Shown here one piece after another: positions 1 to 64,000 of a DNA stretch of 64,000 nt. Source of the DNA: an uncultured Candidatus Peribacteria bacterium. Its GTDB lineage: Bacteria > Patescibacteriota > Gracilibacteria > BD1-5 > UBA2023. The DNA lies in assembly GCA_964596675.1 (NCBI GenBank), contig CAZQUZ010000005.1, positions 16,875 through 80,874 on the forward strand. Direction: 5' to 3'. The notes under the pieces are model-generated. The model was not told where the DNA came from and made no database searches. It saw only the letters and a program-made list of their open reading frames with translations. The position numbers and the translations under genes are program-made. Within the stretch, counting starts at the first letter, position 1. Each line of letters starts with the position of its first letter.

Positions 1-36
1 AAAAGAAGGGAGATTACATTGTATATGGGATATCTT

Positions 37-309
37 TTACTGTGGCAATACTCCGTGAGCGAGATAGGATTCATACTGTAATATTGAGTGCACAGATTCG
101 AGCTGATGAGTAGCTCATTCTTTATCGAGCAAAATATCGAGTTCATTTTCTGTTGTTCAAAAAAATACAGTTATATCTTTATGTCCAATCAAAAGCTGAG
201 CAGTCCTCATGGCTATAATTTGAGATCTTCTCTGATATTCCCATAAGAGTCATTCTTGATAACTTTTTATATTTTCCAATTTTCAGAATACTGAATCAAG
301 TCATGACAT
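37..309 (-). CDS. hypothetical protein (about 90 aa)
   Basis: With TGA read as Gly (about 5 in-frame TGA) this frame has no TAA or TAG from ATG (309) to TAA (37-39) in an AT-rich stretch. No family recognised. Confidence 0.3.
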
Positions 310-388
310 AAGCCGAGTTGATAAGATAATAAGTATGGGTATAATAATGAAATTTTTTACATATCAAATCTTTTATTTAAATATAAAA

Positions 389-415
389 TTAGCACGTAAA
401 CAAAAAAAGTGCTAA
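389..415. promoter_or_regulatory. CIRCE-like inverted repeat upstream of dnaK
   Basis: TTAGCAC-N13-GTGCTAA has the same arm spacing as CIRCE (TTAGCACTC-N9-GAGTGCTAA). It lies 78 nt upstream of the dnaK ATG, next to a TTGACA box. Confidence 0.5.
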
Positions 416-421
416 AAACTT

Positions 422-449
422 TTGACAGGATGAAAAAATCTGATAAAAT
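422..449 (+). promoter_or_regulatory. candidate dnaK promoter
   Basis: TTGACA (422-427), 16-nt spacer, TGaTAAAAT extended -10 (441-449). Confidence 0.4.
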
Positions 450-492
450 TACCACAATCCAATACGGAGAATATTTATTAATCTTTATAACT

Positions 493-2385
493 ATGTGAAA
501 AATTATCGGTATAGACCTCGGTACCACGAACTCATGTGTCGCCTTCATGGAAGGTGGACAGCCTAAAGTCATCCCAAATACTGAGGGTGGCAACACGACT
601 CCATCAGTCGTCGCTCTAAAAAAAGACGGTGAGACCATCGTCGGTATGCCAGCACGTCGTCAGTCTGTGACGAATCCTGGGAAGACGATTTTTTCTGCGA
701 AACGCTTCATCGGTCGCAAGTTCTCTGAGGTGACAGAAGAGCTAAAGGCTGTACCATTCAAAGTCACGAAAGGTGACGATGGTGGATGTATGATCGAGTG
801 GGATGGCAAGCCAGTCCGTCCAGAAGAAATAAGCGCGAAAGTCCTCGAAAAACTCAAACACGATGCTGAGAAATACCTCGGACAAAAGGTTACAGAGGCA
901 GTCATCACGGTACCTGCATACTTCAATGACTCTGAGCGTCAGGCAACTATCAACGCTGGTAAAATCGCCGGTCTCGATGTAAAGCGTATCGTCAATGAGC
1001 CGACAGCGGCTGCGCTCGCCTATGGTGCAGATAAATCAAAAGACCAAAAAATCGCAGTCTATGACTTCGGTGGTGGTACATTCGACATCTCTATCCTCGA
1101 GATAGGAAGTGAGGGGACATTCGAAGTACTCGCGACGAACGGAGACACACACCTCGGTGGTGATGACTTCGATCAGGCGATATTCGAGTATGTGATGGCA
1201 GAGTTCCAGAAAGAGTCTGGTATCGACCTACGAAAGGATGCGATGGCAGTCCAGCGTGTCCGCTCTGCATCTGAAAAAGCGAAAATCGAGCTCTCATCTG
1301 CGACATCTACGGAGATCAATGAGCCATTTATCGCGATGAATGACGGAGTCCCGAGCAATCTGAATATGACTATCACGCGTGCGAAGTTCGAAGAGCTCAT
1401 CGCTGACCTCGTAGAGCGCTCTATGGAGCCATGCCGCAAGGTGATGAAAGACTCAGGCCTCCAGGCAAATCAAATCCACGAAGTCATCCTCGTCGGAGGC
1501 TCGACTCGTGTCCCGATGATAAAGGCAAAGGTAGAGCAGTTCTTCGGTAAAAAACCAAATGAATCCGTCCATCCAGATGAGGCAGTCGCACTCGGTGCTG
1601 CTATCCAGGCTGGTATCATCCAGGGTGATGTGAAGGATGTCCTCCTCCTCGATGTCACTCCACTCTCACTCGGTATCGAGACACTCGGTGGTGTGATGAC
1701 TCGTATGATCGAGCGAAACACGACTATCCCGACATCGAAGTCTCAGGTCTACTCGACCGCTGCAGATAACCAGGACTCTGTAGAGATACATATCCTCCAG
1801 GGTGAGCGCGAGATGGCTGGGGACAATAAGTCTCTCGGACGATTCGTCCTCTCAGGTATCGCCTCGGCTCCACGTGGTATCCCGCAGATCGAGGTCACTC
1901 TCGACATCGATGCGTCTGGAGTGCTCCATGTCACGGCGAAAGATAAGGGAACTGGTAAGGAGCAAAAAATCACGGTGCAGGGCTCTACTGGTATGAGCGA
2001 TGATGAGGTCGAGAAGCTCGTGAAAGAGGCTGAGGCCAACCGCGAAGCCGATAAGAAAAAGAAAGAATCTATCGAAGCTCGTAACCACGCTGACTCTCTC
2101 GTATACCAGTCTGAGAAGACCCTCGAAGAAAGCAAAGATAAGTACGAGGCAGCAGATGGCGAGACTGCGAAATCCGCTCTCGAACGTCTGAAGCAGGTCC
2201 TCGCTGACACGAACTCTACGAAAGATGATATCGAGTGAGCGACGAAGACCCTCTCTGATGTCATGATGAAGATCGGCCAAGCCATCTACTCGCATGCTGG
2301 TGATCCAGAAAAGGGTCCTGAAACAAGTTCAGGATGACAGAAAAATGAAGATGGAAGTGTCGAGGCGGAGGTAGAGGAGAAGTAA
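493..2385 (+). CDS. dnaK: molecular chaperone DnaK (Hsp70)
   Basis: Track ORF 547..2238 extends 5' to ATG 493, giving [22 protein letters not shown] with codon 2 = TGA. It extends 3' through TGA at 2236 and 2335 to TAA 2383-2385. Confidence 0.97.
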
Positions 2386-2390
2386 TAGTT

Positions 2391-2420
2391 ATCCCCACTT
2401 ATTTGAGTGGGGATTTTTTA
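2391..2420 (+). terminator. rho-independent terminator after dnaK
   Basis: atccccact / agtggggat hairpin followed by a T-run. Confidence 0.7.
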
Positions 2421-2433
2421 AAATTTTAAAAAT

Positions 2434-3663
2434 ATGGCTTGATTTTTGAAGCATCCGCATCTTTTTGAAGATACTTATAAGGTAGAAGATTTATTTAATC
2501 TATCTAGTTATAATGAACGAGTATGGTGAAAAATTCAAGCAATGGATAATAAGTGAATATTTTGATTTGTTTGACCTTATGGATGTTGAAAATCAACCAT
2601 TATTCATAATATAAAATCTGCTCATTCTTGAGAAAATGATCCACTATGGATACATTTTGATGCTTGGAAGTATCATGATAAGAAGGATTTATGGGAAGGA
2701 TTTATAATAGATATTGGTATACAAATTTGATGTGTTTCGAGGGGCGATATTATAAAAGAGATAGATGGGGATAATATTTCATTTGCAGATTGACTCTTAA
2801 CATCCCTTTCTAGCATTCCTTGATTATGATGACTTGATTGACTTAAAAAAATATTTGAAAGTCGTTGAATCAGTCGTGTTTTTGAATTTCAAGAGTTATT
2901 AAGAAAATTCCTGCTTTCCACAAATAAAGAAATTATTATTACTATCGAAGATATTGACAGGGCATGAGAACAGGGATTAACTTTCCTAGAAACCCTCAAT
3001 TTCTTTCTTAAACAAGAACTCGAAGAAAAAGCGATTAAAGTTGTAGTGCTAATCGGAGATAAATCCTATAAAAATCAGGGCTCTGATAGTTATCTTAAGT
3101 CTTTAGATATTACTGAATTCTTTTCTCCTTGAATTTTAGATTTTGAATGATTTATAAATGAACATTTTGATTTTAGAATTTTTTCAAGCATACCTCAGCA
3201 AAATTTAGCTAAACAACAATTAGTATCACTATGTCTAGAGTTAATAAAAAGTAATTTAACCTCTCAAACATTTTCATTAAGGCAAATTAAGCACATCTTT
3301 CGTGCAGCCAATAATAGTTATAAAGTACAGATCTCTAAATGATTTCCATCCGATTTTCGGATTACCATAATTTTGGAATTTGCAAAATATATACATTCAT
3401 CAAATTCACAGTTAGAATTTGAAAAGATACAGCAAGAGATTGTATGGGATAGTATAGTCTTTAGGTTTATTAAAATGGTAAATTATAGTATAGAAAGTTT
3501 TACAAAATTTAATTCATATCTCACCTCATGAAGAGCGCAAGAGTTACAGGCGAATATATGATGGATTGATTCAGAATTATTTCATCCAGATCCTTTAAAA
3601 GTTTATTGTTATAGTGGATTAGATGACACTCAAAGATTGCCAAGATTTTATATTGATTTCTAG
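2434..3663 (+). CDS. KAP-family-like P-loop NTPase (409 aa)
   Basis: No TAA or TAG for 409 codons, with roughly 20 in-frame TGA. Walker A GPYGCGKST at 2572-2598 has two of its glycines encoded by TGA. An FDAWKY motif typical of KAP NTPases follows. The gene is absent from the track because of the TGAs. Confidence 0.7.
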
Positions 3664-7380: not shown

Positions 7381-8424
7381 TTATTCATCGATTTCTTCTA
7401 CTATCTTTTCTTTTTTACTACCAGCAGTATCTCATTTTTTACTTTTACGTACCTCAGCTTCGATTTTTGCGAGGAGCTTCTTATCCTCTCTGAGGAATGT
7501 ACGGGCATTATCTCGTCATTGTCCGAGCTTTATATCACCATATGAGTAGAATGCTCATGCTTTTTTGATGATACCACGATCTGATCCGATATCGAGCACT
7601 TCACCCGCGCGAGAGATTCACTCATTAAATAGCACATCTATCTCCACTTCGCGGAATGGAGGAGCGACTTTATTCTTCACGATTTTTACTTTGACTTTAT
7701 TTCCGAATGCTTCTTTATCATCACCAGTACCTGATTCGAGCTTTTCTTTTTTACGGATTTCGAGACGCTGCGATGCATAGAACTTCAGAGCATTACCACC
7801 TGTAGTAGTCTCTGGATTACCGAACATGACACCTATCTTCATACGAATCTGATTAATAAAGATGACAGTCGTATTCGACTTACCGATGACACCAGTCACC
7901 TTACGAAGTGCCTGAGACATGAGGCGAGCCTGCAGTCCCATAAATGAGTCTCCCATGTTTCACTCGATCTCAGCCTTTGGTGTGAGGGCAGCGACCGAGT
8001 CTACGACTATGAGGTCGACTGCTCCAGAACGTACGAGCGCATCGACTATCTCGAGGGCTTGTTCACCATAGTCTGGCTGTGAGACGATAAGGTTATCGAT
8101 ATCGACACCGATATTACGAGCGTAGGCAGGGTCGAGTGCATGCTCTGCATCCACAAACGCTGCAGTACCACCAGCTTTTTGACACTCGGCGATAGCATGG
8201 AGTGTGAGTGTCGTCTTACCAGATGACTCTGGTCCATATATCTCGATGATGCGTCACTTTGCATATCCGCCGCCGAGTGCTTCATCGAGTGCGATAGAGC
8301 CAGAAGAGGTCATCTCGACATTCATATGTGTACGCTCTCCGAGTTTCATCACAGAGCCAGCGCCGAACTGTTTTTCTATCATGGCGAGAGCGGAAGCGAG
8401 TGCGTCTTTTTTATTATCAGTCAT
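7381..8424 (-). CDS. recA: recombinase RecA
   Basis: Track ORFs 7618..7956 and 7960..8154 join in one frame through TGA codons. The gene extends to ATG 8424 and TAA 7381-7383. Motifs: [17 protein letters not shown] (Walker A), [20 protein letters not shown]. Confidence 0.97.
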
Positions 8425-8663: not shown

Positions 8664-9290
8664 TTATGTAAAGAGGTCTCCCGGAAATGCTCGGACGAAT
8701 GTACCTTGTATCATGATGTTACCATCGGATTCATCGAGGATTATAGGTTTATGTTTCGGGTTATCGGAGTGGGGAATGAGGTATACAGCACCATCACGTT
8801 CACGGTATTCTTTGAGTGTAGCTTCATCATTGATGAGTGCGACGACGATTTTGCCATTTTCTGGAAGATTGGACTTCTTGATGAGGACAAGGTCGCCACT
8901 TTCTATTCCTTTTTGGTTCATGGAGTCTCACTCTGCTCTGAGGAAGAAGTATTCATCACTTGATGAGAGGAGCTTCGTGGAGATGGGTATCTTGGTCTCG
9001 ATGTTCTCCTCGGCGAAGATAGGCATCCCGCAGGCGATAGCACCGATGAGAGGGATAGGTCGTACCTCGTAGCTGTCGGTCGTATACTGAGGAGATATAC
9101 GTATCTGGTCCTGACTATCTCGGTAAAGCCATCACTTCTCCATGATCTGATCCAGGAGGACAGATATCGAGCGAGGTGAGGCGTATCCGAGATCTGCCTG
9201 GAGGGCTCGTATCGTCATCTTCTGTCCAGTAGAGAGATACTCTTTTACTTTGAGAAAGACGGATTGTTCTTTGGTGGTGAGTTTTTCCAT
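8664..9290 (-). CDS. lexA: LexA repressor (S24 peptidase)
   Basis: Track ORF 8664..8921 extends 5' to ATG 9290. It has an N-terminal wHTH, a cleavage-site region GAIACG, and the catalytic motif G-D-S-M whose Gly is TGA (8928-8930). Confidence 0.92.
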
Positions 9291-10554: not shown

Positions 10555-11661
10555 TTACTCGAAAATAGCTTCGAAAAATCACTTTCCTGCTTTTTTGCCA
10601 CCCTGGAGCTCGAGGAGTGCGATGTAGAGTTTTTTCTCATCGCTCGAGAGTCGTGTCGGTACATCGATGATATAGTGTATGATGAGGCTTCACTTTGCTC
10701 ACTTGCGGTCAAGTCGTGGGACTCACTCATCCCTGAACTCGAGTGTATCGCCACCCTGCGTGCCATGTTTTATATCGAGGACCTTTTTGCCGATAATAGG
10801 TATCTCGAGCGTTTTTTCACAGCCGAGAGCCGCCTCTGCAGGAGATATCTTCACACTATAGTGGAGTGTATGTCCATCTCGCTCGAGACCTCACTCGCGC
10901 TCAGGCACCTCGAAGCTCACATAGAGATCTCAGGCTCCATCGCGTCCGCCGTGTCATTCACCGCGCATTTTTATACTCATACCATCTTCGATCCCACCAG
11001 GGATTTCGATATCTTTTTTTATGAGAATATCAGTATATTTTTTGCCATGACAGGTGCCACACTTTTCGACTATCTTCTGACCTGTACCTCCACAGTGACT
11101 ACACGCACGCTCTTGTTCCATAGTACCAAATACTGTCTGTACTCGTTCACGTACACGACCACTCCCACGACACTGTTCACAGGTCGTTGTCGTGCCTCAC
11201 TTGCCACCGCATGACTCACATGGAGTACGACGCTTAAACTCGACTTTACGATTATTGCCACGTATCGCATCCTCGAGCGATATACTCATACGAATCTCGA
11301 TATCGTCTCCGATATCTGCCCGCGCGCGTGTACGACCGCCTCATCCAAATCCTCCACCGAAAAACTGAGAAAAAATATCACCCAGATCACCCGCATCGAA
11401 TCCTCACTGAAATCCTCATCCAAATCCTCCCATCCCGCCCATACCCTCGGTCGTCCCGAATCGGTCATAGTGAGCCTTTTTTTGCTCGTCAGAGAGTGTC
11501 GCATAGGCTTCGTTTATCTTCTTAAACTCGGCTTCTTTGCCCTTATCTCCACCGTGTCTATCAGGATGGACTTCCATCGCCTTTTTCTTATAGGCGCGCT
11601 TTATCTCATCGGCACTGGCAGTGCGTTCTATTTCGAGGAGGGAGTAGTATTCGTATTGCAT
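10555..11661 (-). CDS. dnaJ: co-chaperone DnaJ
   Basis: J domain with HPD (track ORF 11416..11661), a G/F-rich region with several TGA-encoded Gly, four CxxCxGxG zinc-finger repeats, and a C-terminal domain. TAA at 10555-10557. Confidence 0.95.
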
Positions 11662-24341: not shown

Positions 24342-25934
24342 ATGATTATCACACCACTCTGACATACTGAGTTCCTCATCGATATCGCGAATCCGAGTGG
24401 CGAGACCGTGCGTATCCTCGTGGACAGCTGGCTCAGTGACTATGCGGTCGGGGATATGATGGAGCGTACAGTACGTGTCGAGCTCGATACTACCACTCTC
24501 ACGAGCATCGATGCTATCTATATCTCTCATGCCCACTGTGATCACTTCGATCCATACATACTCATGCAGATATATGGAGAGACTCTTTCTGCAGATTGAG
24601 CTCCAGGGCAAAATCCTCAGTCTTCCGCTTCGCTGCAGACAGCTCCTTTACAAAGGAGCCCACAGAGACCTATACTTATCCTCCCATTTACCCTCAGATA
24701 CCTCGAGTCACTGATACGTGAGTATCTCCCATCTGCAGAGATACATTTTCTCTCGAACCATCATACCCTTCACCATAAAGGCATAGAAATCACGGGACAT
24801 ATGTACCCGAATCCCGAGATCACGAATGAAGATGACGTCATGATGCTCGAGGTCGCGAATGAGCGAGAGATGGTATTCGCGGAGATAGATACCGTGCCAG
24901 ATATGGAGGATGAGACGGTCGCACGCGCACTCTATCGGGTATTCACGAGGAAGTCATATGAGACGGCGTGCTATATCGCGAGTCGCAATGTCCTCGAGTG
25001 ACAGATACCACTCTATGATACTCCTCCTGCGAAGCGAAAGGCCTATCGAGATACCTACATCGCTGAGCAAAAAGAATCTATGAAGATGCAGTATGAGAAA
25101 TATGACTATGAGGAGTTCGCTCACTTTCCGAATCTCTATACGCTGCCAGGATTTGTACAGGGATATATCGGACAGGGGATAGCGTATCCGCGCAGTATAT
25201 CGGCTGAGCTCGCAGATATGGCGATATGGCCACTCGAAGAGATGGTCTCTGTCGAGCAGGACTATGCGCGAGAGGCTTCTTACGAATTTTCGCAAAAAGC
25301 TCTCCTCCCAGGTAGGCAGTACCGTATCGAGGGTGGTACGATCGAGACCGGTCGGAAAGAGTGCCCTATCGCTCGTCTCATAAAACCAGATACTCACTCA
25401 CCAAAGTCTCTCTCTGATACTCCTCCACGTATCTATGCACATGGTCCGCTCTTCCCACGAGTACTATCCGATGCAGATATCAGTGCTGCACGAGAGCGTA
25501 TCCTCGATATTTTGGATCATCGCTTTCTCACATACTGGTCAGCCTCTCCTATCGCGAGCCTCAGAGATGCTCTCATACGAAATAATGGGATCTATCGTAT
25601 AGGATGCACCCTCGATGATACGAAATATATCTTCGAGTACTCGACTGGGGTTTCTGGATTTCGTGAGGTCGCATATGAGTCTCTGATGTATCTCGACGAA
25701 GAGTACTATGTCACGGATATCATCGACTTCCTCGAGTGACGTCAGGAGATGTATTCATCGTTCTGGCATGCGCTCGACCCGAAAAAAGTCTATCGTCTCT
25801 GGACCTGTCTCGGTGCGAACTATATGAACCATGATATCACCCTCGCGAAGTATCGTCTCCACTTCGAGCGTGCGAGAGCGTGACTCACAGCTGCAGACTA
25901 CGTAACACCCGTACTCGATACCCTCACCCCATAA
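24342..25934 (+). CDS. metallo-beta-lactamase-fold protein with large C-terminal extension (530 aa)
   Basis: Track ORFs 24408.., 24801.. and 25080..25739 share one frame. Joined through TGA they run from ATG 24342 to TAA 25932-25934. Contains the ISHAHCDHFD (HxHxDH) motif. The next gene starts 5 nt later. Confidence 0.72.
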
Positions 25935-25938
25935 CACT

Positions 25939-26610
25939 ATGTCTCATATCCGCGCCTATCAGGTACTCTGCCTCTTCGGATGAGTACTCGGACTCCTCCA
26001 TATCTATCTCACTGGATCGACTATCCTCGGTGGACTCATCTGGAATCTCATCCTCGCCGTCGTACCATACCTCTTCGCGAGCCTCGCTATCCGCTACACC
26101 GGATGGCGACACTATGGACTCGCTCTCCTGTGGCTCCTCTTCTTCCCGAACTCGCTCTATATATTCACCGACTTTATCCACCTCGGTAAGGTAGAGGAGC
26201 TCATACACTTCGAGATCATCTATATCTCCACGATGGCTATAGCTGGGATGGTCGCAGGATTTGCTTCACTCGACCTCCTCCACACCTACTGGAACCAGCA
26301 TATCCATAAGGCTCGTGCATGGCTACGAGTACACATCCTCATGCTCCTCGGAGTATTCGGGGTATTTCTCGGGAGATTCCAGCGGTTTAATAGCTGGGAT
26401 ATCCTCCATGAGCCACTCACATTCGCTCGAGAAGTCATGATGGTCCTCATCTACCCGAATAGCCTCACACGAGCTGGTGCGCTCGACCGCGTCTCTGAGC
26501 AGGCGCTCTATGGCGCGAATGTCATGAATCCATATCTCTTCATCGGACTCTACTTCATATTTTTTATGATACTCTACGTGTTCCTCTATCATACGAGGAG
26601 AGTGAAATAA
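25939..26610 (+). CDS. DUF1361-like polytopic membrane protein
   Basis: ATG 25939 is in frame with track ORF 26233..26610 through one TGA. The FFPNSLYIFTDFIHL motif is present. Confidence 0.65.
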
Positions 26611-26612
26611 AT

Positions 26613-27062
26613 TTATTTTTCTCCTATCTCACGAATAAATTTTCACAAATAATTTGGATTTACTAGATAAAAGCCGCCACGATTTTGTATGCCATGGGGT
26701 ATATAGGTATTATGCATCACAGCAGCAAGATAGGGTCTTTTTATGTGCTCTGTTTTTTGTAAAAAATCAGATTCTAATTTAAGAGACTTCCATATTTTAT
26801 GCACATACTTCGTATAGTTTGTATGCCATTTTTTTGAATCTATAATAAGCATATTTCCATTCGAATATTTGATGATATGGTCTATGTTTGTATTTCACCA
26901 TCCATCTTTATTTGTACTAATATTTATTCCTTTTTGATAATCTGCTATCCTTTTTAATATTCTCAGAGTCTGTTGTTCTCCCAGAACTCATTTTTTAATA
27001 TTTTTTTCTGGATAATGTCCTAAAATCATTCTTTCCTTACTTTTTTTGATATCCTGGTCCAT
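26613..27062 (-). CDS. NERD (nuclease-related domain) protein (149 aa)
   Basis: Track ORF 26643..26852 extends both ways through TGA. The pattern GVLGEQQTLRIL ... IDHIIKYSNGNMLIIDSKKW matches the NERD core. Confidence 0.65.
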
Positions 27063-27154
27063 ATATACAAAATTATTGACTAATATATAAATTATATCAT
27101 AATAATTATTTGAGGTCAATTTTATTTTTTCCATTTTCTCGATATACTCTCCCT

Positions 27155-28624
27155 ATGTTATCTCCAAAAAAACATCTTCATGTCATCGGTATCGGCGGTA
27201 TCGGTGTCTCTGCGCTCGCTCGTTACTATCGCTCGATCGGGTATAGTGTATCAGGTTCTGATGGTGCGGATTCTCCATTTCTCGATACGCTCCGTGCAGA
27301 GGGCTTCGATATACATATCGGACATCGCGCGGAAAATCTAGGAGAAAATACAGATTTCGTCATCTACTCTGAGGCTATCATCACGAAGCCAGACCTCCCG
27401 CCGGAGGAGCAGATATATGCGAATGTCGAGCTCGCACGCGCGCGAGATCTCGGTATCGAGCATCTCTCCTATCCTGTGGCACTGGGGAGAGTATTCGATG
27501 CTGCAGAGGGTATCGCTATCACGGGCTCCCATGGGAAGAGTACGACGACCGCTATGACGACACTCATGCTCGCGAATGAATACTCGGATAATCCGACGGT
27601 CGAGATTCCTGTAGATGGAGCATTTGCCTATATGCCGACTGCGCCAGGATGTAGCGCTATCATCGGTACGCAGGTCCCCCAGCTCGGTCATACGAATTTC
27701 TATACTGAGATGGGTGCGTCGCACTTCGTCATCGAAGCGTGTGAGTATAAACGTTCGTTTCTCCAGTATCATCCATACATCACCGTCATCACGAATATCG
27801 ATCTCGACCACCTCGACTACTACCAGAACCTCGATGACTATATCAGTGCATTCCAGTCGCTCGTGGATCAGACGAGTGGATTCGTCATCATTTCGAGAGA
27901 CGATGAGAACTCAGCGAAGCTCGATATCCCGGTCGAGAAGCGCATCATCGTAGGAGGTGGTCAGATCCTCTACTATCCGCGCGTCGAGGAGGATGACCAC
28001 GGTCGTAAAAAAGTCTACTACGTCGAGAAATCCATGCCACTCCCAGAGATACATCTCCAGGTACCGGGCGCGCACCTTCTCCATGATGCGTATCTCGCCT
28101 ATACGGTCGGGCGACTCCTCGGGATGCAGGATGATATCATCGTACCAAAGCTCGAGTCCTATACGGGCTCATGGCGTCGCTCTGAGATCGTCGGGACGAC
28201 CACACACGGGAACCTCGTCATCTCTGACTATGGACATCACCCGAATGAGATACGCCCCACCCTCCGAGCTATCCGTGAGAAATACAGAGACAAGCGACTC
28301 TATGTCGTATTCCAGCCGCATCAGTACTCGCGGACTCGCGAGCTCCTCGGTGAGTTCGGCAGAGCATTCGGTGATGTGGATGAGCTCGTGATACCAGATA
28401 TCTACTTCTCCCGGGATAAGCAGGAAGATGTCGAGTATATGACGGTGGAGAGGCTCATCGACACGATCGCATGCGTCGAGCAAGGTCTCACCATCCATGA
28501 TGGAGGTGGTCTCGAGAAAACTGCAGAGCTCATACGTACCTATGATGCGTCACATCCGGAGAGCTCAGTGATAGTCCTCCTCGGTGCAGGGGATGTCGAT
28601 AGCCTCAGGTATAGTATCTTATAA
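27155..28624 (+). CDS. murC: UDP-N-acetylmuramate--L-alanine ligase
   Basis: Track ORF 27110..28624 has no TGA. The ATG at 27155 is preferred. Motifs: HVIGIGGIGVSALA and GSHGKSTTT. Confidence 0.93.
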   Translation: MLSPKKHLHVIGIGGIGVSALARYYRSIGYSVSGSDGADSPFLDTLRAEGFDIHIGHRAENLGENTDFVIYSEAIITKPDLPPEEQIYANVELARARDLGIEHLSYPVALGRVFDAAEGIAITGSHGKSTTTAMTTLMLANEYSDNPTVEIPVDGAFAYMPTAPGCSAIIGTQVPQLGHTNFYTEMGASHFVIEACEYKRSFLQYHPYITVITNIDLDHLDYYQNLDDYISAFQSLVDQTSGFVIISRDDENSAKLDIPVEKRIIVGGGQILYYPRVEEDDHGRKKVYYVEKSMPLPEIHLQVPGAHLLHDAYLAYTVGRLLGMQDDIIVPKLESYTGSWRRSEIVGTTTHGNLVISDYGHHPNEIRPTLRAIREKYRDKRLYVVFQPHQYSRTRELLGEFGRAFGDVDELVIPDIYFSRDKQEDVEYMTVERLIDTIACVEQGLTIHDGGGLEKTAELIRTYDASHPESSVIVLLGAGDVDSLRYSIL

Positions 28625-28627
28625 TAT

Positions 28628-29806
28628 ATGCATTTCTCTCGTAACATTACTATCCTTCTCGCACTCCGCGCGGTGAGATGGTTTTTGGTGATTATGCCTA
28701 TTATCACGATTTTTTATCGGGAACATGGACTTTCTATGTGAGAGGTATTTTTGATACAGGTAGCATTTTCTCTGTCCGTAGTACTTTTAGAGGTGCCTAC
28801 GGGATATTTTTCGGATGTCGTCTGACGCAAAAAATCCCTTATCGTCGGCATGACCTGTAGTATTTTTTGACTTGCACTGTACTGTCTTGGGCATGGATTT
28901 TATGGATTTTTCATCGCTGAGATGTTGCCCTGACTGGGTGCGAGCTTCATATCTGGTACAGATGTGGCTATGATGTACGACACACTTATCGATGAGTGAA
29001 AGGAGTGACTCCACAAAAAAATCCAATGATACGCCCAATCTCTCTCGAGTATCTCAGAGGCATCAGCGAGTTTATTGGGAGGATTTCTCGCTGTTATCAG
29101 TATTAGTCTGCCATTTTATGTGATGTTAGGTGTATTTATCCTGATGTATCCTCTCGTATTTTTTCTCCGTGAACCACATCGCCATCGGCATGAAAATCGT
29201 GAGGGGATGATACATGGCATATGGAAAATCATCCGACACTCACTCCATGATCATAAAGAGATAAAATGGCTCATATTTTTGTCTGGATCTTTCTGAGCAT
29301 CGACGCTCGTCATGACGTGGTTCTTGCAATCATACTTTACGCTGGTATCCGTTCCACTCCAATATTTCGGAGTATTATGGTGTATATTTATCCTTTCTAT
29401 CGTGCCATTTTCTCATTTTGCACATTCACTCGAGGCATATCTCGGGAGACGAAACTCTCTCATATGTATGACGCTGTTACCGATATGTGGGTACTTTTTA
29501 CTCGGTACGTTTGTATCTTTTTGGGCTTTATGTTTTGTATTTTTCTTTTATTTTGCTCGATGATTCGGGACAGTCGTACTCCAGGACTATATAAATAAAC
29601 TCGTCTCATCAGATATTCGTGCCACCGTCTTATCACTGCAGGCACTGATGTTTCGTCTCGTTTTCGTCATCGTCGGACCGCTGATGGGATGGGTAGCTGA
29701 TATCTATAGTCTTTCTGTAGCTTTACTACTCTCTGGTATCGTATTTGCTCTCTTTGGTCTCGTCTCTCTCCTCGGACTCGCTCATCATAGGGCACTCGAT
29801 ATATAA
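28628..29806 (+). CDS. MFS transporter (392 aa)
   Basis: ATG 28628 lies 4 nt after the murC stop. The frame includes track ORF 29312..29563 and has about 9 in-frame TGA, ending at TAA 29804-29806. About 12 hydrophobic segments. Confidence 0.78.
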
Positions 29807-29817
29807 CCATTTTTTCT

Positions 29818-30027
29818 ATGAATCCTGATATCACGAACATCGACACGGCTGCTCTCGATACGACCCTTATGGGTATAAACATGAGCCCCAGTCATCTCAT
29901 CTGGTCGACTATCATCGTCCTCGTCGTATCACATATCGGTGCCCGGTATCTCGCTGGATTCACCCCGAGGGGATACTGGTTCTGGTTTACACTCATAAAT
30001 ATCATCGTCGGACTGATACTTATATAA
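29818..30027 (+). CDS. small membrane protein (69 aa)
   Basis: Track ORF with two hydrophobic segments. No family recognised. Confidence 0.4.
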   Translation: MNPDITNIDTAALDTTLMGINMSPSHLIWSTIIVLVVSHIGARYLAGFTPRGYWFWFTLINIIVGLILI

Positions 30028-30119
30028 AATTAACTTGCAATTTTATAAAAATATGTATACTACATCGTAGTGATAGACTTATCTTAGATATAGTTTTTCA
30101 TGTAATTCTCCTCCCTTTT

Positions 30120-30146
30120 CCCACCGTAATTTGGTGGGCTTTTTTA
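30120..30146 (+). terminator. rho-independent terminator
   Basis: cccacc-gtaattt-ggtggg hairpin followed by cTTTTTT. Confidence 0.7.
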
Positions 30147-30181
30147 TTGTCTTTTTCTTATTTTTCTCCATAATCAAATCC

Positions 30182-30697: not shown

Positions 30698-30715
30698 ATC
30701 GTAACACAATGAGTG

Positions 30716-33564: not shown

Positions 33565-33582
33565 AGAGGAAAACTGAAGAGA

Positions 33583-35076: not shown

Positions 35077-35145
35077 CGAAAGTATAGAGAAAAATCCTAG
35101 AAATACAAAAAAATCCCCGATATAGGGATATTTCTCGATAGAAGA

Positions 35146-35844
35146 CTATTCCTTCCCTCTCCAGTTGGTTCCCACGACGCGCTCGATCCAACTAAACACA
35201 TGTATCAGTCTCCAGCGTGGTTTTTTACGAAAACAGAGGAGCCATATAGCGATATTCGAGATAAATAGATATGTCGGATATACGATATCCTCAAAACTCC
35301 ATGCATGTACTGCGAGTATGGCAAAGAGTCCAGAAATCCATCCCAGCATCCATGCATACTTATCTTCCGTTTCTGGATGTTTATAGAGTTTCGTAAAAAT
35401 CGCTGTTGCTCACATCGCATCGATAAGCGTATTGGTCGTGAGGAGAAATACTGCGAGTCATCGTTCACTCATGCCGAGCATTTCTGTGACTTCAGGACTA
35501 TGTTTCGCGATAATCCAAAATAACAGTGATATCATGGATATGCCGAAATAGATAGCTTCTACTCTATCCATTTTGGCATATCCATACCGAAATGCTAGAA
35601 CTATGACGATAAGCTGGGTGATGGCGAATGCGAGTGAGAGCATGATAGTCGGGAGGCTCCCGAGCTCATAGCTCGATATAAGGATACAGATGGTAGCTAT
35701 CTCATAGAGGAGCCATCAGACGATATTCGGCTTCGTATGACCAGCGATGATCGAATAAATATATCGAAACATCGATGCATAGACGAGTATCGTGGAAAGA
35801 ATCAGTGCGAGTGATGTGATACTGATGGATGTGAGATAGTTCAT
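35146..35844 (-). CDS. polytopic membrane protein (232 aa)
   Basis: ATG 35844, in frame with track ORFs 35458..35643 and 35146..35349 through 3 TGA. About 6-7 hydrophobic segments. Confidence 0.6.
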
Positions 35845-35926
35845 ACTCCCAGTCTAGCATATGTCGGATTTTTTTGCAAAAAATCGAGATTTCTCTATAG
35901 TAATCCTATCATCACCAATCCCACTT

Positions 35927-37228
35927 ATGATAGATATAAAAATCCTCCGCAATAATCCAGACCTCGTGCGCAAAGCCCTCCATGATAAAGTGACGAAATG
36001 AGTCAATCTCGATACGGTGATCGACCTCGATGTCCGACGAGTCGCCCTCGGACAAGACCTCGATGTACTCCGCGCTCGTCGTAATGAGATTTCTGCGAGC
36101 ATGGGAAACGGTAAACCAGAGCCTGCAGTCCTCGAAGAGGCGAAAAGTATAAAGGAAAAAATCCAAACTCTCGAGCCAGAGTACGAACGCGTCGAAGCAG
36201 AGTTCCTCGCGCTCTATAAAAAAATCCCGAATATCCCGACCGCAGATACACCTATCGGACTCACTGAGGATGATAATGTCGTCGTGAAGCAGTGGGGGAA
36301 GATTCGCGAGTTCGACTTCGCAGTCCGCAATCACGCAGAAATCGCAGATATCCGCGGCTGGATAGATAAGGAGCGTGCTGCGAATGTCGCGGGTTCTCGA
36401 TTCGCCTATCTGAAGTGAGACCTCGTGAAGCTCCAGTTCGCCCTCATACAGTGGGTCATGGACTCGCTCTCTGACTCGAGTGTGCTCGCGAGCATTATCG
36501 CCGAGCATGGGCTCTCTGTCTCAGATAAGCCATTCACTCCAGTGCTCCCACCATACATGATAAAGACCGCTCCATACGATGCGATGGATCGCCTCGAGCC
36601 GAGTGAGGACAGATACAAGATAGAGGGCCAAGACCTCTGGCTCCAGTGAAGTGCTGAGCATGTCCTCGGGTCTATGCACGCAGGAGAAATCTTCGCAGAA
36701 GCAGAAATGCCAGTACGATATCTCGGATATGCGACGTCATTTCGTGGGGAAGCTGGTACCTATGGGAAAGACATGGAGGGTATCATCCGCATGCACCAGT
36801 TCGATAAGCTCGAGATGGAGTCATTCTCGACGGCAGAGACATCTCACGATGAGCATCTCCTCTTCGCTGGTATCCAGGAGTACCTCATGCAGCAGCTTGA
36901 GATACCATATCAGAAACTGCAGAAGTGTACATTCGACATCGGAAAGCCAAATGCTAAGGGCTCTGATATCGAGGCATGGCTCCCAGGACAGAGCAAGTAT
37001 CGTGAGACACACACCGCTGACTATATGACTGACTATCAGTCTCGTCGCCTCCAGACGCGTGTCCGCAGAGCTTCAGGCGAGGTAGAGCTCATCCATACGA
37101 ATGATGCGACCGCATTCGCATGTGGACGCGCTCTCGTAGCTATCATGGAGAACTATCAGAATGCTGATGCGACTGTGACGGTACCGAAAGTGCTCAGGAA
37201 TTATATGGGAGGGAAAGAGAGGATTTAA
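35927..37228 (+). CDS. serS: seryl-tRNA synthetase
   Basis: ATG 35927, in frame with track ORFs 36017.., 36425.. and 36674..37228. It has a coiled-coil N-terminus and class II motifs (FRGEAG, RMHQFDKLEME, GRALVAIMENYQ). Confidence 0.95.
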
Positions 37229-38102: not shown

Positions 38103-38705
38103 ATGTCCTCAAAACTCCAAACATTGTGATTCGTTCAGTGAGATACAACTAAAATGGCTGAGGTCTTTGATTCTCTTCTTGGTGACTTTGAGGCAGTAAA
38201 ATATTCTACCCCAAGCGAATATGTGCAAAGATATTGGAATGTCTATAAATCAAGAGATATATCTAATAATAATTTAAATTGAAAGGTATTTGAATTAATA
38301 TTATGAACATTGTTATATAGGGAATGAATTATTCCCTTGTATATTTGAGCAAAGGTCGCATTTGTTCCGAATGTCGTGTATGATCTAATGTACTATTCAC
38401 AAGAATGTGGACCGATTTGTCTCAGCGCTAAAACCACCTTACGTGAGAGATATAAGCAGGCCGATTTGGAGGCAATCGCATTGAAATATGTCCATAGAAA
38501 GGCAAAAGCTTATCTTATTACGCTTGATGAATGAGAAGCACTTGCAAATAAGCGAAAAATTGAAAAATGAGATATTATTTGACTGGATGATGTCATTGTT
38601 GCTAGTTCTGATGAATTCGATGCCTTAATAAAGTTTTTAAAGGAACTTAAGCTATCCGTAGCTCCAGAAATACAGGTAATACAAGCACAAAGTATTATAT
38701 CATAG
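38103..38705 (+). CDS. putative type II restriction endonuclease partner (200 aa)
   Basis: Starts 3 nt after the methyltransferase stop. No TAA or TAG for 200 codons, with about 10 TGA. GKVFELIL and SAKTTLRERYKQ segments resemble PD-(D/E)xK-type restriction enzymes. The call rests mainly on position. Confidence 0.45.
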
Positions 38706-40345: not shown

Positions 40346-41047
40346 ATGTCTAAACGTACTCTTTTTATCGGCGATGTACATGGATGCTATGATGAGCTCA
40401 TGGAGCTCATAGAAAAAGTATGACTTCGCGATGAAGATGATCTCTATTTTGTCTGAGACCTTATCAATAAATGACCCAAGTCACTCGAAGTCGTAGAGTG
40501 GATACGGAGCCGTCCAAATACATGGAGTGTCATCGGAAATCATGAATATTTCCTGATGATGACTGATGTGGAATGGGAACATATGCTCGAGACACATCCA
40601 GATATGAGTGAATGAAGAAAGGCATGGATAACCTCAGGACGAGCGCGCACTGGTATGATTGCTGAGATATTTGTTCGTGAAGATCTACGAGCGTGGCTGA
40701 TGAGTCTACCATTTTTCATAGAAAAAGAATCATTTATAGTGTTGCATGCAGGTATACATCCTGATTTTTGACTCCAGAGTTCACCTGAGATTATGACCAT
40801 GATACGTGAGTACCATGAAAAACCATGGTATGAATACTATACAGGAACAAAGCCTATTATCTATGGGCACTGGGCGGTAGATGGTCTTCGCATTCGAAAA
40901 AATACTATCGGACTCGATACGGGTTGCTGTTTCGGGGGGCACCTTACGTGTTATTGTTTGGAGACGGGAGAGATTTGGCAGGTAAAAGCGCATAACGTCT
41001 ATAAGTTTATCCCGATATGGAAAGATAAGCTCATGCATATACGATAA
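40346..41047 (+). CDS. metallophosphoesterase (ApaH/PrpE-like Ser/Thr phosphatase family)
   Basis: ATG 40346, in frame with track ORF 40793..41047 through about 6 TGA. Motifs: GDVHG, GDLINKGP, GNHE, HAG, GH. Confidence 0.85.
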
Positions 41048-53408: not shown

Positions 53409-54380
53409 TTACATGACTTCATGTGCTATAAGATACGCGATATACGCCGTATAGCACAATACGAGTAATACTCCCTCTTTTCTTCAAATGGTATTTCTTG
53501 TCCAGATAAATGAGAGAAGGAGCAAAAGAATAGGTGCGAATATAGCAACCATTAGGTCAGTATATGAGGCATTCAAAAATGGTAGCGGGGCAATAATTGC
53601 GGAAGTCCCAAGAATTACTAAAATATTCATAATATTTGAACCAACTACATTTCAAATAGCAATATCTGGATTTCACCTTCTTGCCGCGATTATTGAGGTC
53701 GCAAGTTCTGGCATACTTGTTCCAATAGCAACAACAGTAAGTCCAATAATTGCCTGCGACAATCAGAAGAACTTTGCTATATTTACAGCACCATCTACGA
53801 GGATTTTTCATCCTATAAACAATACAAGTATTCCTCCAGCTATCCATAAAGTTGCTTTCCATGGTGATATGATCTTTTCAACCTTTTCGCTTTCATCAGG
53901 AATAAAGTTATTGTGTTTTACTGAATAGACTATATAAGCAATAGCGGCACTCAATAATATAATACCGTCTACTCGACCAATCGTATTATTCGAAGCACCG
54001 TCAAGAAATGTATCACTTACAAGAATAAGAAAGAGGAAACTGGTAAGTATGACTATGGGGAGGTCAAAAAATCTTGTCGTCCGCGATAGAATAATAGGCG
54101 ATATGCAGGCACTTACTCCAAGAATAAGGAGAACGTTAGCAATATTTGAGCCTAATACGTTTCAGATAGCAATTTCAGTATTTCAAGAAATACTTGCCAG
54201 TATGGATACAATCAATTCTGGCATACTTGTTCCAACTGCCACGATAGTGAGCCCAATAATTGCTTGTGATATTCAAAACTTCTTTGCAATGGATACAGAA
54301 CCATCTACGAGAACATTCCCTCAGAAAGTTAAAAGTATGAGACCAAAAATGACGGCGATACATGAGAGTAAGATTTCCAT
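53409..54380 (-). CDS. CaCA-family Na+/Ca2+ antiporter (YrbG-like), 323 aa
   Basis: About 9 in-frame TGA. Two alpha-repeats are present: GLTIVAVGTSMPEL...AIGNVLGSNIAN and GLTVVAIGTSMPEL...AIGNVVGSNIMN. Coordinates are anchored to out-of-frame track ORFs 54175..54363 and 53557..53862. Confidence 0.88.
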
Positions 54381-56915: not shown

Positions 56916-56934
56916 AAGTGAAGGTTCTTAGGAA

Positions 56935-59259: not shown

Positions 59260-59440
59260 ACTTCCAATCTATAAAATAAGGAGGGTTTGTCAATGTTTAT
59301 TCAGCATCATGTAATCTAGATTTCATATATAGCAAGCCATCTCCCGACTTTTTTCAAAAAAGATTTGAGAAAAAGTGAAAAATAATTTATCGGTAATTGT
59401 GAGATATCACACCCTATAACTTTTTAACCACTTTTTCCCT

Positions 59441-59836: not shown

Positions 59837-59842
59837 AATAAA

Positions 59843-59865
59843 ACAGGTCATTTGACCTGTTTTTC
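59843..59865. terminator. bidirectional hairpin terminator
   Basis: acaggtc-attt-gacctgt hairpin plus a T-run, between convergent genes. Confidence 0.65.
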
Positions 59866-59867
59866 GA

Positions 59868-60449: not shown

Positions 60450-60476
60450 AAAAAAATAGTAAGAAAATAAGATTGG

Positions 60477-60827: not shown

Positions 60828-60840
60828 AGTACTAATAGAG

Positions 60841-61859: not shown

Positions 61860-61930
61860 ACATATGATGTAAAGCCTTTAAGAATGAGTTTTTAGTTAAA
61901 TAAAGGAGGCTTTATATCCTTATGTGTTTC

Positions 61931-62043
61931 GCTAAAAACTTACATTTTCCTGTCGATAAAACTTATCAAAGGAGAGGTATATAAAACCTCCTTACTTACT
62001 ATAAGTTTTTTCGACAGATTTTTCAGGAATGTAAGTTTTTAGC
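61931..62043. repeat. 113-nt imperfect palindrome with 16-bp perfect outer arms
   Basis: Outer arms are gctaaaaacttacatt (61931-61946) and aatgtaagtttttagc (62028-62043). Partial inner arms contain tgtcga/tcgaca. A central AAGGAG..CTCCTT hairpin is present. Confidence 0.5.
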
Positions 62044-62124
62044 CCAGATATGATATCACTCTTTTGGGAAAAAGCAACCAAAAAAGATGAGTTTTGCTCA
62101 TCTGAATCATCACGCACGCACACA

Positions 62125-62149
62125 CAAAAACACCCATGACACAGGGTGT
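62125..62149 (-). terminator. hairpin terminator
   Basis: acaccc-atgacaca-gggtgt hairpin with a minus-strand T-run, 30 nt after the 62179 stop. Confidence 0.6.
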
Positions 62150-62178
62150 TTTGCTGTTATGTTTCGGGTGGATCTCTT

Positions 62179-62892
62179 TTAATTTTCAATATTTTCTTCC
62201 TTCATTATCTCGTCAATATGTTGTTGTGTAAGTTTTGGATTATTAAAAGAATAGTAAAACTTTTTATTCTTATTCACATAACTGACCTTGAACATTTCGA
62301 GTTCTTCGAGTTTCTTGTAGATTGCCCTCGCTTGTGCTTGTTTCACTCATATATCGAATATCTTTCTCACGGAGATATCTCTATTTACGAGCATAGCATA
62401 AACTCGTTGGAATATGCGCTTATTTTCTCGCGTATAGCGTGGCTCATGTGGATTGACTGGTGTTGTATCATTTTCATCGCTATCCTCGTTGTATGGTCAT
62501 TTTTCATTGATTTGGAGGTGGATATTTGTTATCTTCTGATATCCGACTGGTGGAGGGATGCTAGTTCAAGATTGTTTGCCTTGGAATATAATGATACATG
62601 AGGGGAACTTGTGTCCGTTGACAACTAGTGGCGTGAGGCTTATATTCGGATAGAGCCTCTCTGCGAGATGTCCATAGAGGAACAAAAGGCTTTCTATAAC
62701 TTCTTTGAATGTCGCATGTTCTTGCTTGGTTCGAAGTATCTCTTCATGTGTGAGATTGAGACGGATTATAGTATAGTTTTTGAGTTCTATGATTTCCTCT
62801 GCGAGTGATTTTCTTTTGTCTGTTTTGCGAAAACCGAAAAAGGAGTTCATCTTGCTCGTGATAAAAAGTTCATTGACTGTTGGTAGATCCAT
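62179..62892 (-). CDS. hypothetical protein with C-terminal winged-helix-like region (237 aa)
   Basis: Track ORF 62566..62892 continues through 3 TGA to TAA 62179-62181. The C-terminus RIFQRVYAMLVNRDISVRKIFDIGVKQAQARAIYKKLEELEMF looks like a wHTH. Confidence 0.55.
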
Positions 62893-62910
62893 ATTCTTTT
62901 TTGAGTTATA

Positions 62911-63432
62911 TTATAAATAGTTTTCATTTTGATACTGTGTGAGTTTTTCTTTTGCTTCTTGGAGTTCATCATTTTTCTTTTCTTCCACGACCTCTATCTC
63001 TTCTATTTTCATGCGAAGTTTGTCTATTTTAAGTTCATTTTCATAGGATGCCTCAATGTCCACATTGGTCATGCTGTTCATCTCTATTTTTCGGATTTCT
63101 CATTCTGCTTCCCGTTTTTTAAGGGCGAGATTTTTGAGACCCATTTCGAGCGAGCGCACTTGTTCAAAAAGTCGTTTTTCATTGCCGTCTAATTTTATTC
63201 ATTTTTTTGTCTGCTTTTCTGGTGTTCATGTACTTACTGAACCTCATGACCCGCGACCATCGTGAAGCATATAGATAAAAAAGAGGAGGAATAGGAATGC
63301 TCATATCATTCAAGTTGTTCATAATCCATCACTATCAGCATCTTTCATAGTAGCATCGGCATTTATATCTTCCAGAGTTATGGATTGGAGGTTTTGTTCT
63401 TGTTTCATATTGGGAAAGTTAAGAGATAACAT
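62911..63432 (-). CDS. TM + coiled-coil hypothetical protein (about 173 aa, start uncertain)
   Basis: The frame of track ORF 63319..63528 continues through about 7 TGA to TAA 62911-62913. It has one hydrophobic segment and then heptad-like K/E-rich sequence. Confidence 0.5.
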
Positions 63433-63611
63433 TTCCTCATACGATGTTTTAATAATTTTTTCAAATGTTTTTTTCTTTTTATTTTGTGTGATGACACGAA
63501 ACCGCACAGGCAAGGGAAAAACTGGCAAAAGGAAAAAAGAAAAATAAAAAAAGATCTACTTTTTTGATATTTTCATTTGAAAAAAAGTTCTAAATCTCCT
63601 ATTCACACAAT

Positions 63612-63895
63612 ATGGCTGGTCGAGTACAAACGACCGTCCCTGCGTGGTGAGCCCGTTAGGATATAAAACCACAATCACAGGGTCGCAATGTGCCAATTAA
63701 ATGCGGGGTATTCCTAACCCACATGAAATCTCAATAAGATGGATTTGGTTAATTTTCGACGTTTTGGGGAAAGACAAACGAGCGATAGGATGTTCATACT
63801 TCCGAGTGGTAGTGGCTAACGTGGATATGGCATGCCCAGATATGATTTTAGGGGGGTTTGTCATATCCGGGTATGACCCACCCTCTGAAATCAGT
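63612..63895. ncRNA. GC-rich structured-looking non-coding island (identity and strand unknown)
   Basis: The stretch is markedly more GC-rich than its AT-rich flanks. Nested complementary segments include GGTCG/CGACC, CCCTG..GTGGT..ACCAC..CAGGG, AAATC/GATTT, GGATATG/CATATCC and GGGT/ACCC. The only track ORF here (63701..63907) is unconvincing. Confidence 0.3.
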
Positions 63896-64000
63896 GATGG
63901 ATTATAAGATTTAACTTTTGAAAAGATGAAAACTTGTAATTTCTAACTTATTGATATAATATACCTATATATTCATTAATGTTAGAACTTATGTGATACC

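Follow-up and report, generated by a model that had tools for sequence, protein, structure and literature searches.

A 64-kb bacterial chromosome segment of probable Gracilibacteria origin in which TGA is read as glycine

In Gracilibacteria, UGA has been known since 2013 to stand for glycine, with validation by proteomics in 2014. The code is reportedly owed to Campbell 2013, Rinke 2013 and Hanke 2014. UGA = Gly has been described in both Gracilibacteria and Absconditabacteria, whose recoded members possess a tRNA-Gly(UCA) and lack release factor 2 (RF2), and of the peptides identified by proteomics, 97 matched the UGA-as-Gly translation alone and 3 the UGA-as-Trp translation alone (PMC8629427, PMC4032931). 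Further reassignments have also been reported: an extended Absconditabacteria code combines UGA = Gly with CGA/CGG = Trp, and CGG is Trp in some Gracilibacteria (Shulgina & Eddy 2021, PMC8629427).

We analysed a stretch of 64,000 nucleotides (hereafter the window), for which the original prediction was that TGA is decoded as glycine (translation table 25) and that the ORF track supplied with the sequence was systematically wrong. When TGA was taken out of the stop set, the coverage by ORFs of 100 aa or more rose from 0.65 to 0.97 and the number of ORFs of at least 300 aa rose from 3 to 37, whereas freeing TAG or TAA instead gave only 7 and 4 ORFs of that length, respectively. As had been predicted, fragmented ORFs fuse once TGA is read as glycine. 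In the table-11 ORF list, the 288-aa cytosine methyltransferase (MTase) appears as fragments no longer than 59 aa and RecA as fragments no longer than 112 aa, and 53 of 66 genes are affected, in agreement with the verdict on the supplied track.

These 66 genes are a curated set in which gene calls were corrected by homology; longest-ORF and codon-usage callers misplaced the strand of several genes (e.g., at 32.4-33.6 kb and 40.0-41.6 kb) and also lost TGA-rich genes. All 66 genes end in TAA (50) or TAG (16). None has an in-frame TAA or TAG, and 53 contain in-frame TGA, among them recA, dnaK, dnaJ and the ThrRS and SerRS genes. The 276 in-frame TGA codons make up 21.6% of all Gly codons in the window (about 15 per 1000 codons), and TGA is most frequent in AT-rich genes. 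Stop codons had also been said to lie a few nucleotides from the next start codon; this is true of about a third of the junctions between genes, 22 of 65 being separated by 30 nt or less, and not of the rest; the median gap is 82 nt.

One possible interpretation is that TGA is mostly glycine and still serves as a context-dependent terminator of some genes, and low-level alternative decoding of UGA has indeed been reported in BD1-5 proteomics (PMC4032931). In the window, however, the position of TGA along genes resembles that of GGN (KS p = 0.34), with no pile-up at 3' ends, each of the curated genes has its own TAA or TAG stop, and the alignments of DnaK and RecA with E. coli extend beyond their C-terminal TGA codons. 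The dual meaning, which we consider very unlikely, was rejected on these three grounds.

Sixteen window proteins were aligned with those of E. coli K-12, with a best-frame filter on the BLAST hits, out-of-frame and antisense hits having inflated the non-Gly tally. The residue opposite each TGA, whose tabulation the original prediction had proposed as part of its check, was Gly at 43 of 73 codons and Trp at 1 (binomial p = 2.5e-29 for Gly against a 7.6% background). Gly was found at 59% of TGA and 67% of GGN codons, which is no difference (Fisher p = 0.23). The 30 of 73 TGA codons on a non-Gly residue are expected at 30-57% identity, because GGN codons miss Gly in 33% of cases. Homology runs on across every TGA, none of the 73 falls on Cys or Sec, and the remaining codons are all standard. 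CGA was on Arg in 25/61 and on Trp in 1/61 cases, and CGG, with a small sample, on Arg in 7/17 and on Trp in 0/17, so the arginine codons are not reassigned.

Profile scores led to the same residue. When TGA was translated as G, W, A, S, C or X, the bit scores were 288, 237, 261, 262, 253 and 251 for Pfam DNA_methylase, 216, 182, 203, 206, 190 and 199 for Na_Ca_ex, and 106, 77, 89, 88, 83 and 84 for DnaJ_C. Gly was best in all three families, by about 114 bits over Trp when summed across them. In addition, two standard-code proteobacterial orthologues of the MTase have Gly at 15 of its 18 TGA columns, and in the alignment with M.HhaI, TGA in motifs I and X falls on glycines of the catalytic fold.

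The same data bear on translation table 4, in which TGA is tryptophan as in Mycoplasmatales, Entomoplasmatales and some insect endosymbionts. TGA is plainly a sense codon here, as table 4 would have it, and a public gene caller translated a near-identical copy of the MTase (P0001) with W at every TGA. In the E. coli alignments, however, Trp is opposite 1 of 73 TGA codons versus 19 of 40 TGG codons, W in place of G costs 51, 35 and 28 Pfam bits, and TGG is not among the 20 commonest codons paired with TGA in orthologues. The lineage, moreover, appears to be Gracilibacteria, not Mollicutes. Table 4 was ruled out by the E. coli alignments, the orthologue codon pairs and the Pfam scores, and we consider it exceedingly unlikely.

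TGA codons were also found at the glycines of well-known motifs (Table 1). Each position cited in the original prediction was read directly from the sequence, and all were correct. Codon 2 of dnaK (496-498) is TGA, giving MxKIIGI versus MGKIIGI, opposite Gly2 of E. coli DnaK. The Walker A motif of the KAP-like NTPase (2572-2598) reads TGA CCT TAT GGA TGT TGA AAA TCA ACC (xPYGCxKST), with the two TGA codons that had been claimed. In lexA, positions 8928-8930 are TCA on the forward strand and TGA on the reverse strand, followed by GAC TCC ATG (x-D-S-M); as predicted, this TGA supplies the Gly in the G-x-S-M motif of the catalytic serine, opposite G in 'RVSGMSM' of E. coli LexA. The expected TGA codons of the DnaJ G/F region are three, at 11418, 11406 and 11343. 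That of the DEAH helicase lies in motif I, xETGSGKT (16617-16619, reverse strand; 'IVIVExETGSG' versus 'VVIVAGETGSG' in HrpA). MTase motif I has the anticipated TGA TGA at 37281-37286, within GCT GGT ATA TGA TGA (F-A-G-I-x-x), opposite LFAGIGG of E. coli Dcm and FAGLGG of M.HhaI. For the metallophosphoesterase, GDLINKGP was recovered as 'FVgDLINKgP' (40454-40477, forward strand) with both Gly codons TGA. Five of the recA TGA codons lie within the stretch aligned with E. coli RecA, all five on Gly, and 6 of those in dnaJ are on E. coli Gly. In the Na+/Ca2+ exchanger, the 'IAIGN' motif occurs as a repeat, and both copies have TGA as their Gly codon.

Table 1 Features of the window and their in-frame TGA codons
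Feature	Coordinates	Strand	In-frame TGA	Basis or remark
Whole window	1..64000			Bacterial chromosome segment; TGA = sense (Gly), terminators TAA/TAG only
dnaK	493..2385	+	3 of 58 Gly codons	HSP70 822 bits; 57% identity to E. coli DnaK
KAP-like P-loop NTPase	2434..3663	+	20 of 29 Gly codons	KAP_NTPase 26.9 bits, weak match, N-terminal part only; gene GC 0.29
recA	7381..8424	-	6	E = 3.5e-122, 56% identity to E. coli RecA
lexA	8664..9290	-		Homology to E. coli LexA
dnaJ	10555..11661	-	11	Alignment to E. coli; DnaJ_C profile
HrpA/HrpB-like DEAH helicase, 1203 aa	13182..16793	-	18	Aligned to E. coli HrpA
Gene block in Candidatus Gracilibacteria MAG order	24342..37228			Includes murC, miaA, AI-2E family transporter, dnaX, serS
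murC	27155-28624		none	Up to 78% identity to Candidatus Gracilibacteria MAGs
C5 cytosine DNA methyltransferase, 288 aa	37233..38099	+	18 (GGN, 7)	DNA_methylase profile; Dcm and M.HhaI alignments; gene GC 0.30
Putative restriction endonuclease partner	38103..38705	+	9 (GGN, 2)	Weak BsaWI-like match
Metallophosphoesterase	40346..41047	+		Pfam Metallophos, E = 6e-13
Na+/Ca2+ exchanger family protein (YrbG-like)	53409..54380	-	9	Na_Ca_ex profile; E. coli alignment

Judged from its homologues and gene order, the organism probably belongs to Candidatus Gracilibacteria (BD1-5/GN02, Patescibacteria/CPR), a placement drawn from MurC homology and shared gene order. MurC is 52-78% identical to that of about 35 Gracilibacteria MAGs and at most 40% identical to that of other phyla, and 12 window ORFs have orthologues in Gracilibacteria loci, with the gene order common to both. 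The code had been attributed to Gracilibacteria and SR1 in the original prediction, consistent with the MurC relatives being Gracilibacteria MAGs, a group for which the literature reports UGA = Gly. No GTDB species representative exceeds 78% identity in MurC, so the organism is a different species, not one with a different code. An exact-protein look-up of MurC returned no record, the start codon choice probably being different, and that of the Bax1-I protein returned short Logan contigs only, none reaching beyond the window.

Among the Gracilibacteria orthologues, TGA of the window was opposite TGA 164 times and opposite GGN 186 times, and TGA of the relatives was opposite GGN of the window 415 times. 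TGA and GGN are fully interchangeable; TGA acts as a fifth codon for glycine. All 34 Gracilibacteria loci of at least 5 kb gained ORF coverage with TGA as sense and 32 of them passed a stricter recoding cut-off; no gain was seen in 40 loci belonging to other phyla.

The conservation of these sites also bears on the standard code, under which the in-frame TGA codons would be pseudogenes, sequencing errors, selenocysteine or programmed read-through. What speaks for this is the bare presence of in-frame TGA and nothing more. Against it, TGA is spread over so many genes, recA, dnaK, dnaJ and the two tRNA-synthetase genes included, with no in-frame TAA or TAG and with unbroken homology; the sites are kept as TGA or GGN in relatives and are never on Cys or Sec in E. 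coli; and an Rfam scan of the window matched neither SECIS nor any other RNA family. These explanations were ruled out because the sites are numerous, conserved and specific for Gly, and we give such explanations practically no credence. The reading of TGA as glycine is supported by five independent tests that all indicate it, with the lineage placement concordant.

The organism almost certainly uses genetic code 25, in which UGA is glycine and only UAA and UAG terminate. According to the literature, a dedicated tRNA-Gly(UCA) would decode UGA and would carry the glycine identity set G1:C72, C2:G71, G3:C70 and U73. RF2 would be lost, and because of this loss RF1 alone would terminate, at UAA and UAG. 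A tRNA scan found no tRNA gene in the 64-kb window, and among 37 Gracilibacteria loci it found 4 tRNAs, none with anticodon UCA. No release factor domain was among the Pfam matches of the window, 64 kb being too little to judge the whole genome. A metagenome scan did detect class-I tRNAs that combine a UCA anticodon with an acceptor stem of the Gly type on contigs reading TGA as Gly, the Gly acceptor elements being present in the matches by construction since the search pattern required them. For L152 and L133, Methyltransf_23 scored 43 bits with G at TGA and was not reported with W, related methyltransferase families fell to 22 bits or less with W, and GT2 scored 45 bits with G versus 29 with W. 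None of the UCA-tRNA contigs was from this organism or had genes in common with the window, and these tRNAs back the tRNA-Gly(UCA) mechanism only in general.

In AT-rich accessory genes, namely the restriction-modification pair (37.2-38.7 kb) and the KAP-like NTPase, TGA has almost completely replaced the other glycine codons. For the MTase, an orthologue free of TGA is present on a gammaproteobacterial contig with the standard code; the two are 74% identical, and both have a gene GC of about 0.30. It is possible, though we hold it rather doubtful, that code 25 works like a one-way valve on mobile defence genes: they would enter code-25 hosts from standard-code donors, and the drift of GGN to TGA would then lock them in. 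In that case, the share of TGA in a gene would reflect its residence time in code-25 genomes.

The importance of the finding is practical, not conceptual: since the organism reads TGA as glycine, gene prediction is sensible only with code 25, and the window needs table-25 annotation. The table-11 ORF track is wrong for most genes, and all other findings on the window need to be re-evaluated with table 25. Public copies of this DNA are mistranslated as well; one Logan contig carries table-11 fragments and another stores the MTase with Trp at all 18 TGA codons.

Compared with known systems, the window shows no detectable difference from NCBI translation table 25 (Candidate Division SR1 and Gracilibacteria code), with which it shares UGA as glycine, TAA and TAG as the only stops and, probably, the Gracilibacteria lineage. 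The genome GC of 0.41 is within the reported range of 0.21-0.53 (PMC8629427). The Mycoplasma/Spiroplasma code (table 4) is alike in the change of UGA from stop to sense and in the presumed loss of RF2 but differs in the amino acid, which is Gly here, not Trp, and belongs to an unrelated lineage. Selenocysteine recoding likewise translates in-frame UGA; however, it is site-specific, SECIS-dependent and rare, unlike the 276 sites here, none of them on Cys/Sec and without a SECIS match. The sister clade Absconditabacteria shares UGA = Gly, whereas its reassignment of CGA/CGG to Trp is not seen here, CGA and CGG staying Arg in this apparently gracilibacterial lineage. The UGA = Gly code found here is already known, and there is nothing new about the code itself.

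With TAA, TAG and TGA all taken as stops (table 11), ORFs of at least 100 aa covered 65% of the window (64,000 bp, GC 0.41), only three ORFs reached 300 aa and the longest had 580 aa; when TGA was counted as sense, coverage rose to 97%, 37 ORFs reached 300 aa and the longest had 1213 aa. Control runs in which TAG or TAA was freed instead gave coverages of 78% and 84%, with seven and four ORFs of at least 300 aa, respectively, and a longest ORF of 580 aa in both, and the long-ORF gain from freeing TGA is far beyond chance. Fragmented ORFs fuse as the original prediction had claimed: the table-11 ORF list had left no piece longer than 59 aa of the 288-aa C5 cytosine methyltransferase (MTase) and none longer than 112 aa of RecA. 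In-frame TGA codons said to fall on conserved glycines of unrelated families were read in the sequence for four such families and found as cited (see table), and the protein carrying the GDLINKGP motif matches Pfam Metallophos (E = 6e-13).

Features of the window and of compared contigs
Feature	Position (strand)	Observation
Walker A motif, KAP-like NTPase	2572-2598	TGA CCT TAT GGA TGT TGA AAA TCA ACC, xPYGCxKST
recA	7381-8424 (-)	
lexA	8664-9290 (-)	~240 bp upstream of recA
LexA G-D-S-M glycine	8928-8930 (-)	TCA on + strand, TGA on - strand; next codons GAC TCC ATG (D-S-M)
Type II restriction-modification pair	37233-38705 (+)	MTase and putative endonuclease
MTase	37233-38099 (+)	M.HhaI/HpaII family
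MTase motif I	37281-37286	TGA TGA inside GCT GGT ATA TGA TGA
GDLINKGP motif	40454-40477 (+)	TGA for both glycines
Three-gene AT-rich cluster	54396-59259 (-)	cyanophycin-synthetase-like ATP-grasp protein; 7TM/transglutaminase-like membrane protein; RimK-related alpha-L-glutamate-ligase-like protein fused to QEGLA/MATCAP domain
AT-rich stretch	59400-64000	small ORFs, no Pfam or NCBIfam match
Membrane protein	60841-61473 (-)	J-domain-like 'HPD' motif
MTase orthologue, L156	10001-10864	
MTase orthologue, L159	10001-10891	
tRNA(UCA), phage-like L133	3351-3427	Gly-type acceptor stem

The amino acid at TGA was read against a standard-code reference, 16 E. coli K-12 regions to which the window ORFs were aligned with TGA masked as X; after out-of-frame and antisense alignments were discarded, 16 proteins remained aligned. 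The 73 aligned TGA codons faced Gly 43 times, Ala six, Ser five and Trp once, a rate on Gly of 59% against a background of 7.6% (binomial p = 2.5e-29) that does not differ statistically from the 67% of GGN codons (Fisher p = 0.23). TGG fell on E. coli Trp in 19 of 40 cases. For all other codons the residue matched most often was the standard one, with two sparse exceptions, TGC (n = 11) and TTG (n = 10), neither of which showed a consistent alternative.

Profile HMMs gave the same answer when G, W, A, S, C or X was placed at every TGA of three proteins: DNA_methylase scored 288, 237, 261, 262, 253 and 251 bits in that order, Na_Ca_ex (the Na/Ca exchanger) 216, 182, 203, 206, 190 and 199, and DnaJ_C (DnaJ) 106, 77, 89, 88, 83 and 84. 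Glycine was thus the best residue in all three families, and tryptophan lay ~114 bits below it in sum; together with the single Trp among the 73 aligned codons, this leads us to reject TGA as Trp (table 4). In the MTase, the TGA codons of motif I (FxGxG) and motif X (GNSV) align to glycines of M.HhaI in solved structures. Along the genes TGA is distributed like GGN (KS p = 0.34), and because there is no excess of TGA near 3' ends, residual use as a stop is disfavoured. Selenocysteine recoding was tested and rejected, as were pseudogenes or sequencing errors as the source of in-frame TGA.

Because MurC contains no TGA, it was chosen to search for related loci in GTDB species genomes. The top matches were Candidatus Gracilibacteria MAGs (52-78% identity), and identity in other phyla was at most 40%. 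Twelve window ORFs at 24.3-37.2 kb have orthologues in the Gracilibacteria loci, and codon pairing was tallied over 181 orthologous alignments. Window TGA faced TGA in 164 cases and a GGN codon in 186, most often GGA (95); relatives' TGA stood opposite window GGN 415 times, and TGG was missing from the 20 commonest partners of TGA. This is the pattern expected of synonymous codons one transversion apart. The ORF-coverage method was also run, as a control, on each related locus of at least 5 kb: all 34 affiliated with Gracilibacteria gained coverage with TGA as sense (from 0.08-0.68 to 0.82-1.0), 32 of them passing a stricter recoding cut-off, and the 40 loci from other phyla showed no gain. 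Four close relatives whose records are named 'Candidatus Peribacteria' or 'Patescibacteria group bacterium' (L021, L025, L038, L047) gained coverage, and a more distant 'Peribacteria' locus (L071) did not; GenBank titles are an unreliable guide to the genetic code.

Glycine decoding of UGA in these lineages has been put down to a tRNA-Gly with anticodon UCA and the loss of RF2, and two 'Gracilibacteria' species that retain RF2 also retain the UGA stop (PMC8629427); proteomics of a BD1-5 enrichment found 97 peptides unique to UGA as Gly and three unique to UGA as Trp (PMC4032931). UGA would likewise be read by tRNA-Gly(UCA), with RF2 lost, in the organism studied here, a step we infer from this literature because the window contains no tRNA gene or Rfam match and the relatives' 37 loci hold four tRNAs in all, none with anticodon UCA. 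Scanning metagenomes with a search pattern for Gly-acceptor tRNAs with this anticodon yielded 13 class-I tRNAs(UCA), whose acceptor elements were imposed by the pattern and so are not independent evidence. About two-thirds lie on contigs with the recoding signature, and for two of these contigs (L152 and L133, the latter phage-like) Gly at TGA gives higher Pfam scores than Trp, lending the mechanism general support. L133 (JACCDR010329440.1) has terminase, portal-like and capsid-like ORFs, is TGA-recoded (coverage 0.27 to 0.85; Terminase_6N 29 bits with G, 21 with W) and encodes its own tRNA(UCA); the contig probably belongs to a phage that infects a code-25 host and supplies its own decoder. 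Class-I tRNAs(UCA) with glycine-type acceptor stems also occur on four high-GC contigs (0.53-0.62; L102, L110, L149, L154) where TGA recoding is not apparent, and these tRNAs may be opal suppressors. One of the four contigs, L149, is phage-like in look, with a large PolA-type polymerase.

Read through TGA, the window yields full-length housekeeping proteins by Pfam: chaperones and repair proteins (DnaK, DnaJ, RecA, LexA, RecG and an HrpA-like DEAH helicase); proteins of the cell envelope and of lipid carriers (MurC, an MraY/WecA-type transferase, IspA and UppS); proteins of translation and replication (MiaA, DnaX, SerRS, ThrRS and GlyRS); and SodA, the Na/Ca exchanger and further families. The 66 curated genes end in TAA (50) or TAG (16) and nothing else, and 53 of them contain 276 in-frame TGA codons; beside 1003 GGN codons, TGA makes up 21.6% of glycine codons, and total Gly with TGA included is 6.9% of codons. 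An SOS-type repressor and recombinase, lexA and recA, are kept side by side on one strand in this small-genome CPR bacterium, and the AT-rich three-gene cluster looks like a peptide-ligase module.

The TGA share of Gly codons is lower in genes of higher GC, a strong inverse correlation (Spearman rho = -0.71, p = 9e-9); gene GC spans 0.27-0.53, the window end (52-64 kb) being AT-rich throughout. The TGA share is 0-16% in core genes of GC ~0.5 (murC, dnaK, thrS; MurC 0/41, DnaK 3/58) and 66-82% at GC ~0.3, as in the KAP-like NTPase (20/29), the MTase (18/25) and the adjoining putative endonuclease (9/11). Codon bias is extreme, as seen where gene GC is 0.44 or more (CTC 80% of Leu, TTA and TTG together 3%; ATC 62% of Ile; GTC 48% of Val), and may be due to strong selection on translation or to a reduced tRNA repertoire.

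In the restriction-modification pair (GC 0.30-0.34), where nearly all Gly is TGA, the MTase scores 294 Pfam bits and its 200-aa partner weakly matches BsaWI-like endonucleases. One MTase orthologue, free of TGA and 74% identical, lies on a gammaproteobacterial contig of standard code that has LptD, an HpaII-like REase and no recoding signature; another, from Gracilibacteria, shares 77% identity and contains 12 TGA codons. The gene has a GC of ~0.30 in all three hosts. These comparisons suggest that a mobile R-M module crossed the code boundary and then gained TGA.

Public databases mistranslate copies of this DNA. L097 (Logan SRR12762276) has fragmented genes called with table 11 and a DnaK truncated at a TGA; in L158 (Logan SRR32548948), 97.6% identical in DNA, the MTase was called with the TGA=Trp code, and a stored MTase protein (P0001) has W at 18 of 18 TGA codons, e.g. 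'FAGIWWFH'. Reading TGA as Gly is essential to annotating the window.

ORF coverage, E. coli alignments, Pfam scores and orthologue exchange all bear out the original prediction that TGA encodes Gly. TGA is a sense codon here, it aligns to Gly, and the lineage is Gracilibacteria; the code is NCBI translation table 25, in the table's known host lineage, where UGA as Gly is already known and not new. Absconditabacteria and some Gracilibacteria have an additional change of CGA/CGG to Trp (PMC8629427). This change is absent from the window because CGA (25/61) and CGG (7/17) align to Arg in E. coli; unlike the code of those lineages, that of the window keeps Arg at both codons.
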